Virus record (IMG/VR): IMGVR_UViG_2563366870_000004
Span: 1 to 42,584 of that record
Origin: a virus
Lineage: Duplodnaviria > Heunggongvirae > Uroviricota > Caudoviricetes
Direction: 5' to 3' (one strand)
Length of the DNA stretch: 42,584 nucleotides
This document shows, piece by piece, positions 8,995 through 28,141 of this stretch. The translations under genes and the position numbers were made by a program. Positions within the stretch are counted from its first letter, which is position 1, and each line of letters opens with the position of its first letter. The notes beneath the pieces are model-generated. The model was not told the origin of the DNA, did no database searches, and worked only from the letters and a program-made list of their open reading frames with translations.

Positions 8995-9107
8995 TTTACA
9001 TCGCACTCCTCTTGTGCCATAGTAATCGAGCACTGGCAAAATCCAGTGCCGGGATTTGCACCCCGGATTACTAAAAGGCGCATACCACGCCAGACGTGGT
9101 TTTTTTA
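8995..9107 (+). ncRNA. Candidate small structured RNA / leader element upstream of the anti-repressor gene
   Basis: Three successive hairpins (CACTGG..CCAGTG, CCGGG..CCCGG, CCACG..CGTGG) ending in a T-run; overlaps a low-plausibility ORF 8905-9243. Confidence 0.3.
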
Positions 9108-9255
9108 TGCGTATAGCACAGTCATGCCAGAATTATGGTGGGACGTGCAGGGGCACCGAAAGGTGCGCCGGGTCCTTTTAGCCGGTAGTGCAAACCCTGT
9201 ACGTCTCACCACCAACGAGATTTGCACCTCAGGTGGTGATTAACCATACTAAAAG

Positions 9256-9951
9256 GTGATTGCCATGACTGCTAACGTAACCCCATCTGTTTTTCATTTT
9301 GAATCAGAAGCAACCATTCGAGCCATTGTTATTGATGGAAATCCTTGGTTTGTTGCCAAAGACGTTATTAAAGCTCTTCAACTGACAAACCCCACCATGT
9401 CAATCAAATCTCTTGATGATGATGAAAGGGCTAAATTTAACTTAGGTCGTCAAGGCGAAACCAATATTATCAGCGAGTCAGGCCTCTACACACTGATCCT
9501 CCGCTGCCGCGATGCGGTGACACCAGGCACTATCCCCTACCGCTTTCGTAAATGGGTTACAGGTGAGGTTCTTCCTCAGATCCGCCGCACCGGAAGTTAC
9601 ATTAAAAACTCGCTCCCGCAGGAAGAACGCATAAAGATGGTTGCCGACCAGGTAGCCAACGCCACAGCATCAGCAGTGATGCAGGCGATGAAGATAGAGA
9701 ACAAAACCTACAGTGCCCCGCTGAAGCCCGGCTACCGCAGCCTGATTCACTCGCCGTCTGGTGTTCTCGGCCTGACGGAGAACTCACTGCTGATGAATCT
9801 GCTGAACCAGTTACAGGAAGACGGGCACGACGTATCGGGCGCGGCGGCGGAGCTGACCACCATGTTCTGCTACATCGTCGGTGTGAGCAAATGCCTGCGT
9901 GATATCCAGACGCACGCGGAGTATATCAACGACAAAGCAGGGTTCTTCTGA
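9256..9951 (+). CDS. Anti-repressor with Bro-N-type N-terminal domain
   Basis: Bro-N-like motifs IRAIVIDGNPWFVAKDV, SESGLYTLI, FRKWVTGEVLPQIRRTGSY; C-terminal domain shared with 7842-8114. Confidence 0.7.
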   Translation: MIAMTANVTPSVFHFESEATIRAIVIDGNPWFVAKDVIKALQLTNPTMSIKSLDDDERAKFNLGRQGETNIISESGLYTLILRCRDAVTPGTIPYRFRKWVTGEVLPQIRRTGSYIKNSLPQEERIKMVADQVANATASAVMQAMKIENKTYSAPLKPGYRSLIHSPSGVLGLTENSLLMNLLNQLQEDGHDVSGAAAELTTMFCYIVGVSKCLRDIQTHAEYINDKAGFF

Positions 9952-10015
9952 CGGCGGCGGCACAGGGATGTGCCTTTAAAATAATCATTGGCGATGTGAT
10001 GTAGATTCGCGTAAT

Positions 10016-10032
10016 ATTACCTTAAAGGTAAA
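10016..10032. promoter_or_regulatory. Operator-like palindrome ATTACCT-TAA-AGGTAAA (1 mismatch)
   Basis: Located 25 bp upstream of the ATG at 10058; GAGGAGGAG ribosome-binding site follows. Confidence 0.55.
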
Positions 10033-10057
10033 CCATGTGTTTACATGAGGAGGAGAT

Positions 10058-10267
10058 ATGGGATTTTGGTTCGCTCGTACAAAAACGAGGGATAATGCAC
10101 CCAGCCCTCAGGCAAAAAATGCAGAAGTTCCGGCGTCAGCGCAGGTTAACAAGCGTGGTGGAGTATATATCTCATCACAGCAAATTTCTGAGCTTCCTGA
10201 GGTTAAGGAGATGCGTCGTCTCGCTGCTGCAATTGTTAAACAGGATCTTGCCACTGTAAGGAAGTAG
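10058..10267 (+). CDS. Small hydrophilic protein (69 aa), unknown function
   Basis: Strong ribosome-binding site; stop overlaps the start of the downstream membrane protein gene. Confidence 0.45.
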   Translation: MGFWFARTKTRDNAPSPQAKNAEVPASAQVNKRGGVYISSQQISELPEVKEMRRLAAAIVKQDLATVRK

Positions 10268-11133
10268 TGTTGCTAGCTCTTCTAATTATCCCAATCCTGG
10301 TTAGCGGTTATATTATGATAACCGCTAACCAGTATCATTATTTCCGTTTATACCGACACGAAGGCCAGCTTCTTTATATGAAAGTAGCGGCACTAGGTAC
10401 ATATTGCCTTGTTGCATCAGTAATAATTGCAGCCGCTATAAAATATAAATGGCCTGATTTTCACCTAGTTCACGATATGGTGGAAACTTTTAATGTAACA
10501 TCAAAACCAGAAACAGATAGAATTTACATGTGGCTGCTTCTTCTCTCAGCCACATCCATTTGCTTCTCTTTGTGTTATGTGTCTGTTGTGTGGGTGAAAG
10601 ATTTTCTTCTTGGTTGTTTTTATAAACGTGATATTTACGAGCAAAAAACAGAGGCAATGAAGGCCAGAGTACTGCGAAAAACTTACTCGCAAGGTTCTTT
10701 AGACTTACTATTGCTTGATGCGATTGAATCGGATCCTAAACGACCAATGCTGATTACTTTATCATCAAACAAAGTGTATGTTGGAATAATAAATGGTTCT
10801 GGTGAACCAACGGAAAATCAGGGTCCGCATCAGCACATATCTTTTGTTCCTTTAATGTCAGGATACAGGAACAAAGAAAACTTATCTGTCACATTCACTA
10901 ATGCTTATCCAGGAGAAATACAGGTCAAGCGGACTGCAGCAATAAGAGGAATTAGCAGAAAGAAAGTGCCAGGACTTGAGATCATGGTGTCTATTGACGA
11001 AATAAGTTATATATCATGGTTTGATTTTGAAGTATATAAAGCAACAAATAACAAAGTAGAATCCAGGGGGCACGTTATTCGTGTTACCAAAAATGGAAGA
11101 AATATATATCAAAGAAATAGCAAAAAAGAATAG
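10267..11133 (+). CDS. Membrane protein, 3 N-terminal TM helices plus about 170-aa soluble C-terminal domain, unknown function
   Basis: 288 aa; AT-rich codon usage unlike neighbouring virion genes; TAGTG stop-start overlap with the upstream small ORF. Confidence 0.55.
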   Translation: MLLALLIIPILVSGYIMITANQYHYFRLYRHEGQLLYMKVAALGTYCLVASVIIAAAIKYKWPDFHLVHDMVETFNVTSKPETDRIYMWLLLLSATSICFSLCYVSVVWVKDFLLGCFYKRDIYEQKTEAMKARVLRKTYSQGSLDLLLLDAIESDPKRPMLITLSSNKVYVGIINGSGEPTENQGPHQHISFVPLMSGYRNKENLSVTFTNAYPGEIQVKRTAAIRGISRKKVPGLEIMVSIDEISYISWFDFEVYKATNNKVESRGHVIRVTKNGRNIYQRNSKKE

Positions 11134-11225
11134 CCCGCGCTGCTGGCTTTTTTGTGGACGAAACAAAAGTCAGTGCTACACTCATTGACGCCACATTGAG
11201 GTGGCTTATAGATGGAAATTTCACA

Positions 11226-11387
11226 ATGAAAAAAGCATTTGCTGCACTGTTCGTTTTGTTGTCTCTGGTAGCTTCAACTCAGGCCTTTGCCGGTCGTTGT
11301 CAGCACGACAGCGATACTGCCGCTGACGGCTCCCGCTGCGGTGGGCGTTCTGCGGATTCCCACCCGGGCGGCGGTGGCATTCGTTAA
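11226..11387 (+). CDS. Small secreted Cys-containing, Gly-rich peptide (about 53 aa)
   Basis: Internal ATG gives signal peptide MKKAFAALFVLLSLVASTQAFA then mature GRCQHDSD...RCGG...GGGGIR; putative TTGACG-N16-TATAGA promoter upstream and terminator downstream. Confidence 0.35.
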   Translation: MKKAFAALFVLLSLVASTQAFAGRCQHDSDTAADGSRCGGRSADSHPGGGGIR

Positions 11388-11392
11388 AAACA

Positions 11393-11414
11393 AGGCCGCG
11401 AAAGCGGCCTGTTT
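11393..11414. terminator. Bidirectional rho-independent terminator
   Basis: AGGCCGC-GAAA-GCGGCCT hairpin plus T-run between convergent genes. Confidence 0.5.
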
Positions 11415-11416
11415 GA

Positions 11417-12268
11417 TCACTGTGCAGTTTTCGCTGATCGATTTTCAGCTCTAAATTCAAGAACCGTTTCAATATTTCTTTCCTTCAGCATATCAATAAC
11501 ATTTTTATTCATTTGACTATCACTGGTTAATAACTGGTAAACGTTGCTTCTCTCTTTATCAGAATTTTCTTTAACAGCTGCTTTGCATGCCAAATGCTTA
11601 TTGAAATTTTCTACATCGCTAGTACAGGAATTTACGGCTGCTGATGAAATATCAGACGCTGAAGAAACACCATCATCCAAACGTTTTATAGCATTTTCTA
11701 TACATGAGTTAAGGGAATAAACGACAACTGAGCGATACCCTTCAGACGCACACCATTCTAAATTTCTTGAAGGATCGAGTGGTTTTACTTCGCTGGATTG
11801 AATTAACTTGTCAAAAACTGACTTATATTCAATCTGTTTTTTATCTATAGCCCATACTTCAGTAGCTGATTTATAATTCCCCGTATGCCTATTAACATCA
11901 AATCCATGTTTTATAAGCAAATCTGCCCATGAAAGATTTATTGATTCATTGTTATGAGGCCATTTTCCTGTCAGAACCGCCCCCATAGACCCCATATATC
12001 CGCCATATGATGGTATAGCACCATGGCTCAGTAACTTCTCAGCAACCACAGGGCAATTAATTACATAAGAGGCGTAAAGCCCATTCCATAAAGCCCCTCT
12101 ATAGTAATCGCCACGATTAGGTTCTTTTAAGTCGATAGCCTTTGATAATTGTTCACACGTTTTGCATGCATCAAAGTTATCCTTATTGCATTGCAATGAA
12201 CTGGCGGCTGTAGGATTTACAGAGACTATTGAAAGCACTATGCCAAAAAACAAATTTATTTTTTTCAT
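11417..12268 (-). CDS. Secreted protein with possible ankyrin-like repeats, unknown function
   Basis: 283 aa; cleavable-looking signal peptide; AT-rich; start lies within 2 nt of the stop of the upstream internal virion protein gene. Confidence 0.5.
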   Translation of the reverse strand: MKKINLFFGIVLSIVSVNPTAASSLQCNKDNFDACKTCEQLSKAIDLKEPNRGDYYRGALWNGLYASYVINCPVVAEKLLSHGAIPSYGGYMGSMGAVLTGKWPHNNESINLSWADLLIKHGFDVNRHTGNYKSATEVWAIDKKQIEYKSVFDKLIQSSEVKPLDPSRNLEWCASEGYRSVVVYSLNSCIENAIKRLDDGVSSASDISSAAVNSCTSDVENFNKHLACKAAVKENSDKERSNVYQLLTSDSQMNKNVIDMLKERNIETVLEFRAENRSAKTAQ

Positions 12269-28064: not shown

Positions 28065-28141
28065 GTGGCATTAGCTCAGCTGGACAGAGCAACCGCCTTC
28101 TAAGCGGTTGGTCGCAGGTTCGAATCCTGCATGCCACGCCA
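28065..28141 (+). tRNA. tRNA-Arg (anticodon UCU), phage-encoded
   Basis: Cloverleaf by hand: acceptor GTGGCAT/ATGCCAC, D-stem GCTC/GAGC, anticodon stem ACCGC/GCGGT with loop CTTCTAA, T-arm GCAGG-TTCGAAT-CCTGC, discriminator G, CCA. Confidence 0.85.

Follow-up and report, generated by a model that had tools for sequence, protein, structure and literature searches.

Do two overlapping genes in the accessory region of an Escherichia coli prophage form a system of their own and, if so, of what kind? The window, i.e., the whole 42,584-nt stretch of virus record IMGVR_UViG_2563366870_000004 that was analysed, is an E. coli chromosome segment (its best full-length matches are E. coli chromosomes) holding an epsilon15/phiV10-like prophage that adjoins yfgI. 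At 10058-11133 it carries a gene for a 69-amino-acid (aa) protein and, behind it, one for a 288-aa membrane protein. An earlier note had singled out this pair, together with an anti-repressor gene upstream and a palindromic operator, as an accessory module. We find that the two genes at 10058-11133 make up a cargo cassette complete in itself, which occupies a variable slot of the prophage. Chances are about even, in our estimate, that the pair is a toxin-antitoxin-like phage-exclusion module (abortive-infection type) with a membrane effector; we infer its defence function, and on these computational grounds it ranks as a good candidate phage-exclusion system.

Open reading frames (ORFs) are present at 9256/9265-9951, 10058-10267 and 10267-11133, and the last two are joined as the earlier note had described. 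In TAGTG (10265-10269), the TAG stop codon of the small gene (10265-10267) shares position 10267 with the GTG start of the large gene, and the strong ribosome-binding site reported ahead of the small gene is indeed there (Table 1). A TTG start at 10270 suits the family N-terminus (M-L/F/I-A-L-L) slightly better than GTG 10267. The AT-richness attributed to both genes holds for the large one, whose G+C content (GC) is 0.36-0.39 vs 0.56 immediately upstream and ~0.50 in structural genes, but it is only mild in the small one (~0.45).

Profile searches, which the earlier note had called for, gave matches for the pair only to two families of unknown function, PHROG 3630 for the large protein (1e-113, residues 4-288) and PHROG 5739 for the small protein (7e-52, residues 1-69, full-length match to the hidden Markov model, HMM), and on these matches we assign the pair to PHROG 3630/5739. 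Neither protein had a Pfam, NCBIfam or PADLOC-DB v2.0.0 (2023) match, PADLOC being scanned to E<=1. The close relatives of the large protein form 28 clusters in Enterobacterales. A profile made from these clusters was used for a wider family search and retrieved 2,346 representative clusters at E<=1e-3 (923 at <=1e-10 and 126 at <=1e-30) across phyla; among the matches listed, the relatives were mostly full-length (240-350 aa). No Pfam domain was shared among 76 diverse relatives, and the source-record names seen for the family were all 'hypothetical protein'. Likewise, every one of 74 small-protein homologues is named 'hypothetical', with a Pfam domain in none.

The two genes occur together. 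A locus search with an 18-sequence alignment gave 7 loci, and pairing was counted over 23 independent loci with a readable upstream region, which span Enterobacterales, Turneriella (Spirochaetota) and one Acidobacteria metagenome-assembled genome (MAG). A 55-90-aa ORF on the same strand, -1 to +72 nt upstream of the large gene, was found in all of them (23/23). Nineteen of these small ORFs match the small-protein HMM, with the core motif R-V-V-G-R-G-x-h-x-h-D-x-x-E-h...A-x-x-I-V. The remaining 4, found in Salmonella phage SEN5, a Klebsiella P2-like phage, another P2-like prophage and an Acidobacteria MAG, share the hairpin-helix pattern but form a divergent 'SKDG' subtype (h-S-K-D-G-x-V-S-h-D/N-h-x-x-x-E-V). 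Given the PHROG matches and the conservation of the pair across phyla, both ORFs are real genes. The layout, with adjacent, co-oriented and tightly coupled small and larger genes on prophages, plasmids and islands, is that of type II toxin-antitoxin (TA) systems. As judged from sequence comparison, the conserved entity is a two-gene unit of small partner and membrane protein, and a three-gene module is not supported.

The two genes are lost asymmetrically. The large gene is frameshifted and the small gene intact in Sodalis and in an Arsenophonus endosymbiont; E. coli Ecol_542 carries the small gene at 98% identity with a DUF2335 gene in the large gene's place, the breakpoint being the gene junction, and in E. 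coli strain 4/4 the match is cut short in the same way, covering the small gene, at a locus annotated with DUF2335. A large gene without a small gene was not seen in the loci examined. Moreover, the large gene has a non-ATG start (TTG/GTG) in 11 of 20 loci, and in the window its early codons hold a perfect inverted repeat (Table 1), possibly an RNA hairpin, attenuator, translation brake or RNase site. Diverged E. coli alleles retain this hairpin apart from a single G-U change; in Symbiopectobacterium one of its base pairs has changed on both sides from C-G to U-A, synonymously in each case, and there is one wobble and one mismatch. Together, the asymmetry of loss, that of starts and Shine-Dalgarno sequences, and the hairpin fit a small protein that protects and is produced in surplus and a large protein that does harm and is kept tightly limited.

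In the E. coli loci L033, L034 and L035 (L numbers denote homologous loci outside the window), the small protein has one and the same accession, WP_000508164.1, while the DNA of the whole cassette is 89-92% identical to window 10058-11133; the divergence therefore sits in the large gene. Automated annotation by the Prokaryotic Genome Annotation Pipeline (PGAP) calls the large gene as 251 aa, from an internal ATG with loss of the first transmembrane (TM) helix (L001:13148-13903), or as 287 aa (L033:528-1391). The long form is the right one and the 251-aa call too short, because no stretch of the family is more conserved than the N-terminal LLIPILVSGY.

Predicted structure of the two proteins

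The three N-terminal TM helices proposed earlier for the large protein were recovered as three hydrophobic segments by hydropathy and as helices by AlphaFold2 (AF2) (Table 1). A K/R-rich stretch follows TM3, which predicts an N-out/C-in topology with a cytoplasmic C-terminal domain. Conservation within the protein is highest in TM1 and cytoplasmic loop 1, so that its membrane part is functional and does more than anchor.

Structure prediction of the large protein alone, also proposed in the earlier note, was carried out with AF2 and a 76-sequence alignment, giving a predicted local distance difference test score (pLDDT) of 87.5 and a predicted template-modelling score (pTM) of 0.77. The model has TM helices at 2-28, 34-61 and 81-118, a short helix at 67-75 and further helices at 127-139 and 145-154. 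The soluble domain, to which the earlier note could assign no family, still has none in Pfam, NCBIfam or PADLOC, but its fold can be assigned in the model: an alpha helix and five bent beta strands, predicted to form an Sm/LSm/Hfq-like domain with a low-confidence insert at 214-238. The residues invariant in the family outside the membrane (K169, Y171, S198, G199, R201 and Y214; G173, P181 and E183 are near-invariant) all fall in the barrel, which suggests a binding pocket.

According to the model, the large protein joins the Sm-like superfamily by fold only. No whole-length match to it was found in the PDB, a search of PDB sequences with the family profile gave chance-level matches only (best E 0.46), and a structure search of BFVD gave weak matches only, to uncharacterised Sm-like phage proteins. 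Pfam detected neither the Sm1/Sm2 motifs (as LSM/Hfq matches) nor the MS_channel signature (PF00924), whether in the protein of the window or in 76 members of the family. Unlike other members of the Sm/LSm/Hfq superfamily, the domain is predicted to be membrane-tethered, to have a 25-residue insert between the last strands, and to have invariants of its own (K169, Y171, S198-G-Y-R201, Y214). MscS channels, too, have three TM helices and then an Sm-like beta domain, a resemblance (by hydropathy and AF2) of architecture only.

The small protein was modelled with a pLDDT of 71 (81-91 in the core). Alignments and AF2 give a disordered stretch at residues 1-25 with a short hydrophobic/amphipathic N-terminal motif, a beta-hairpin at 28-38 with a conserved R-G-G turn, and helices at 40-44 and 47-68. 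No recognisable DNA-binding domain was seen in Pfam scans, in the homologues or in the model.

The cargo slot and genomic contexts

The kin of the window prophage are TL-2011b, phiV10 and the O157 typing phages. By blastn, homology to TL-2011b extends over 7829-10033 and picks up again at 11125, and TL-2011b carries a 59-aa ORF and a YafO-family toxin at the same place. When 5,426 complete E. coli genomes were queried with both flanks, the slot (window 9952-11412, from the anti-repressor to a small 'transmembrane anchored protein' gene) was found in ~500. Its cargos besides the pair are small ORF plus YafO-toxin cassettes, DUF2335, DUF4760, a TacA-type antitoxin and unnamed ORFs, and the anti-repressor on its left flank varies (Bro-N, Ant, ORF6N). 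The pair is patchy and accessory, being present in 28-30 of the 5,426 genomes (~0.5%).

These comparisons bear on the idea, put forward in the earlier note, that anti-repressor, 69-aa protein and 3-TM protein form one module under a palindromic operator of their own. The three genes are adjacent and co-oriented, the palindromic site named in that note is present as a perfect 7+7 palindrome, and it overlaps a candidate -10/+1. By sequence, gene 9265-9951 is a Bro-N/Ant anti-repressor (Bro-N, PF02498, 70.8 bits vs a gathering cut-off of 25.6, E 1.5e-19; PHROG 130 'anti-repressor Ant', 1.6e-56). However, no Bro-N gene accompanies the pair in any other lineage examined, and the Bro-N gene is kept in ~480 E. 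coli genomes, only ~30 of which have the pair; the anti-repressor thus drops out of the module. The Bro-N gene, promoter and palindrome are common to TL-2011b, which carries different cargo, and are therefore phage backbone; the outer 5 bp of each palindrome arm are conserved there. The Bro-N gene moreover has its own C4/isrK RNA control region, with which it forms a separate known unit of the P1 immI / Gifsy-1 isrK-anrP-like type of anti-repressor control. The comparative data thus contradict a three-gene module, which we regard as very improbable. The palindrome as the small protein's own operator was likewise ruled out, as a backbone sequence common to a phage with different cargo. The candidate promoter is an 8/12 match read by eye; a consensus scan for sigma-70 promoters called none here, TTGGCG-18-TAATAT being below its threshold.

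Elsewhere, the pair lies at the P2-like gpA-portal (gpA-Q) hotspot in a Yersinia prophage, in Salmonella SEN4/SEN5 and in Klebsiella phage ST15-OXA48phi14.1. This hotspot has been validated as a reservoir of anti-phage systems (PMC9122126). In Citrobacter, Pectobacterium, Cronobacter phage phiES15 and another P2-like prophage it occupies the edge of the prophage or the gap from integrase to attP. The pair is also found in a Providencia epsilon15-like prophage, at one site adjoining umuDC, and on Salmonella IncC conjugative plasmids beside a RecD-like ATPase matching candidate-defence models. In a Pantoea integrative island it stands by an integrase, between Gabija (GajB, 2e-208) and a bSEFIR gene (1e-48), and in a Klebsiella P2-like phage a bSEFIR gene (7e-103) is downstream of it. 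The earlier suggestion that a small partner and a membrane protein sit in a setting typical of exclusion or abortive-infection systems is thus borne out by the P2 hotspot, the integrase/att sites, the Gabija and bSEFIR island and a slot that alternates with YafO and TacA cassettes.

The two bSEFIR genes (PADLOC PDLC03957; L021:5883-7022 in the Pantoea island and L026:5062-6495 in the Klebsiella phage) both lie directly downstream of the pair and accompany small partners of different subtypes, and their adjacency to it may reflect hotspot crowding or a functional link. The Citrobacter prophage that carries the pair has a separate SieB gene elsewhere. A holin/antiholin identity was ruled out, the pair being distant from the lysis genes in most phages.

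What the pair may do

The pairing and overlap of the genes, the membrane topology and Sm fold of the large protein, the places where the pair occurs and its asymmetric loss are observed or are predicted on good grounds. In the mechanism that we favour, with less confidence in its details than in the class of module, the large protein would be the effector, placed in the inner membrane by three unusually conserved TM helices (N-out/C-in). Its Sm-like cytoplasmic domain would assemble into a ring beneath the membrane, as in Sm/Hfq proteins and the MscS beta-domain, and the ring would gather 18-21 TM helices into an ion-leaky or otherwise membrane-damaging assembly. The 69-aa protein would be made first and in excess, from an ATG with a strong Shine-Dalgarno sequence vs a coupling-dependent GTG/TTG start, and would bind the effector and hold it off. 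Infection would free or trigger the effector, either because a labile small protein is lost or because a phage molecule or nucleic acid engages the Sm-like pocket; the pocket (K169, Y171, S198-G-Y-R201, Y214) could sense phage nucleic acid or a nucleotide. A wider claim, which we hold to be possible though short of probable, would make the pair the first representative of a mobile immune family, so far undescribed and spread across phyla (at least 2,300 clusters at 50% identity), with the Sm-like ring as switch and pore organiser and the 55-90-aa hairpin-helix protein as keeper.

Several points weigh against this reading. The P2 hotspot holds non-defence cargo too, namely partition systems and toxins (PMC9122126). 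One distantly related pair (72 aa + 354 aa; L038:6762-8065) is flanked by a peptidase S9 gene and ilvC in a housekeeping setting, and mobile-element genes are absent within 7 kb of it. Target size (860 nt vs 210 nt) may account for part of the pseudogene asymmetry in decaying endosymbiont genomes, and small-large fusion proteins number 0 among 146 representatives. Ring assembly and pore formation are extrapolated from the predicted fold. By hhalign, the family profile gave a probability of 0.13% against E. coli Hfq and 0.10% against E. coli MscS, and at ~0.1% there is no sequence-level membership in either family. The cassette may be expressed in the lysogen, or only through read-through from the anti-repressor operon. 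Finally, no paper describing the family was found in the searchable literature on Sm-like, Hfq-like or membrane-anchored defence proteins; the main texts of the P2-hotspot paper (PMC9122126) and of DefensePredictor name no such system.

The large protein might instead serve non-abortive superinfection exclusion, blocking entry of the incoming genome from the inner membrane, with the small protein as an assembly or targeting cofactor; SieA, T4 Imm and HK97 gp15 are entry-blocking membrane proteins of this kind. An inner-membrane protein encoded at moron sites of temperate phages suits such a role, the Sm-like fold binds nucleic acid in its best-known members, and the high conservation of TM1 fits contact with a conserved host or phage membrane component. 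We nevertheless think it unlikely: the pair is also carried by conjugative plasmids, an integrative island and a plain chromosomal site, and by phyla with very different phages and envelopes, which a generic effector fits better than a block of one machinery. The retention of the small gene alone is also left unexplained, and neither Pfam SieB nor other Sie models matched the pair in the Pfam and PADLOC scans. Orphan small genes fit a pure addiction pair, which would stabilise its mobile element by post-segregational killing and have no anti-phage role. Its antitoxin-first order, start-stop overlap and size ratio are canonical, YafO and TacA-type cassettes occupy the same prophage slot, and the pair sits on large IncC plasmids; integrated prophages, however, gain little from post-segregational killing, the repeated placement at the P2 gpA-Q hotspot and the Gabija/bSEFIR neighbours point to defence, and the small protein lacks a recognisable DNA-binding domain such as most type II antitoxins have. 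To this reading we assign a low probability.

Much the same standing belongs to non-conflict cargo, i.e., a regulated membrane channel or sensor (ion/osmotic homeostasis, stress tolerance or envelope signalling) or a tuner of lysis or lysogeny, which we consider improbable. Three TM helices with an Sm-like beta domain make up the MscS-type core, one homologue is embedded among housekeeping genes, and the cassette of the window, next to the immunity/anti-repressor unit, is a few kb away from the lysis genes. In other phages, though, it is distant from lysis and immunity genes; a sequence relation to MscS is absent (no Pfam MS_channel match; hhalign 0.1%), the pair has the patchy spread of an accessory element (0.5% of E. 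coli genomes), and the obligatory small partner finds no explanation.

By analogy, the pair would work most like RexAB-type pairs, Cap15-like membrane effectors and type II TA systems, and it appears to be a member of none. RexAB of lambda, for which abortive infection via loss of membrane potential is the accepted model, is, as the pair would be, a prophage two-gene exclusion unit with a polytopic inner-membrane effector and a cytoplasmic partner. The partner here is 69 aa vs ~279 aa for RexA, the large protein has a predicted 170-aa Sm-like cytoplasmic domain that RexB lacks, and no PADLOC model of any system matched the pair at E<=1. Cap15-type effectors combine TM helices with a small cytosolic beta-barrel. 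Like these and other TM effectors of Pycsar and of the cyclic-oligonucleotide-based anti-phage signalling system (CBASS), the large protein would join TM helices to a compact cytoplasmic beta-barrel, possibly a ligand-sensing oligomerising switch, and TIR-family (bSEFIR) genes adjoin the pair in two loci. Unlike them, the pair has no cyclase or TIR gene with it in the window or in most loci, the barrel is predicted to be of Sm fold, a dedicated small partner is always present, and PADLOC gave no match. MscS, a heptamer of 286-aa subunits, suggests how a pore could be organised by Sm-like domains arranged in a ring. Type II TA systems such as the small ORF and YafO of TL-2011b share with the pair the slot, the small gene first, a tight or overlapping junction, a similar total size, carriage on mobile elements and orphan 'antitoxin' copies. 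They differ in that the presumed toxin here is a membrane protein and not a ribosome-dependent RNase, that there is no homology to YafO or its partner, and that a recognised DNA-binding fold is missing from the small protein.

Should the pair prove to be an exclusion system, it would add to the phage-defence genes a large unannotated family that is absent from Pfam, NCBIfam and PADLOC, with a membrane-anchored Sm/Hfq-like domain as effector switch, an architecture undescribed in immunity; if the sensing and ring steps hold, the Sm fold would have a role new to it, and abortive infection a new class of effector. The family's hosts, which include E. coli (with ST131-type records), Klebsiella, Salmonella with its IncC resistance plasmids, Yersinia and Pseudomonas phages, are relevant to phage therapy. 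At 1.1 kb the module is small and directly clonable. Independently of function, the analysis corrects a gene model, that of the large gene shortened by PGAP to 251 aa in some genomes, and defines a cargo slot in epsilon15/phiV10-like prophages that can be mined for further systems.

Other features of the window

Table 1. Coordinates of the cassette, its parts and adjoining elements (window positions; loci outside the window as locus:positions)
Feature	Position	Strand	Remarks
Swappable cargo cassette	10034..11124	+	stretch without homology to TL-2011b; blastn breakpoints 10033/11125
Small partner gene	10058..10267	+	69 aa, ATG start; PHROG 5739 match 7e-52
Shine-Dalgarno GAGGAGGAG of small gene	10047..10055	+	read from sequence; 2 nt ahead of ATG 10058
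Large gene	10267..11133	+	288 aa from GTG 10267, or 287 aa from TTG 10270; PHROG 3630 match
Internal Shine-Dalgarno AAGGAAG of large gene	10258..10264	+	within 3' end of small gene; read from sequence
Predicted TM1	10267..10332	+	residues 1-22; hydropathy and AF2 helix 2-20; P9, S13, G14, Y15 near-invariant
Predicted TM2	10369..10446	+	residues 35-60; invariant cytoplasmic-loop motif G33-Q-L-L-Y37 just before
Predicted TM3	10522..10614	+	residues 86-116; runs on as long helix into cytoplasm
Predicted cytoplasmic Sm/LSm/Hfq-like domain	10699..11076	+	helix 145-154, strands 161-251, helix 254-270
Perfect 15-bp inverted repeat, 6-nt loop	10297..10332	+	codons 11-22 of large gene, 30 nt inside; terminator-like flag
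Candidate promoter TTGGCG 9988-9993, 18-nt spacer, TAATAT 10012-10017	9988..10031 region	+	phage backbone, not cassette-specific
Palindrome TTACCTTAAAGGTAA, perfect 7+7 TTACCTT-A-AAGGTAA	10017..10031	+	phage backbone, not module-specific
Bro-N/Ant-type anti-repressor gene	9265..9951	+	neighbour outside module; Pfam Bro-N (PF02498) and PHROG 130
isrK Hfq-binding RNA	9030-9106	+	Rfam gathering-level, 67.4 bits; upstream of Bro-N gene
C4 antisense RNA	9131-9216	+	Rfam gathering-level, 77.8 bits; directly upstream of Bro-N gene
Loci with small gene intact and large gene frameshifted (Sodalis, Arsenophonus endosymbiont) or replaced (E. coli Ecol_542)	L014:5779-6878, L015:5742-6818, L032:4019-4966		

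In the prophage, the lysis genes and tailspike gene are followed by an ISL3 insertion, two small ORFs, the Bro-N gene and the pair; 3' of the pair come a 53-aa signal-peptide gene, an opposite-strand AT-rich gene for 283 aa, and the large internal virion genes. The insertion (6037-7794, +), between the tailspike gene and the accessory region, encodes an ISL3-family transposase (406 aa), with a DUF1706 passenger gene (172 aa) 5' of it. The C-terminal half of a 90-aa ORF at 7842-8114 (+) resembles the C-terminal domain of the Bro-N protein (the PHROG 450-matching region), and this ORF may be a remnant or a paralogous module. The 53-aa protein (11226-11410) is the conserved right flank of the slot, and its TL-2011b homologue is annotated 'putative transmembrane anchored protein'; a G+C-rich hairpin 3' of its gene, at 11393-11410, was flagged as terminator-like on the minus strand. 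The 283-aa ORF (11417-12268, -), which adjoins the slot, has a GC of 0.35-0.42 and a signal-peptide-like sequence at its N-terminus; it matched nothing in Pfam or PADLOC and is probably another moron. Further along the prophage, a tRNA gene lies at 28065-28138 (+; Rfam tRNA, 71.7 bits).

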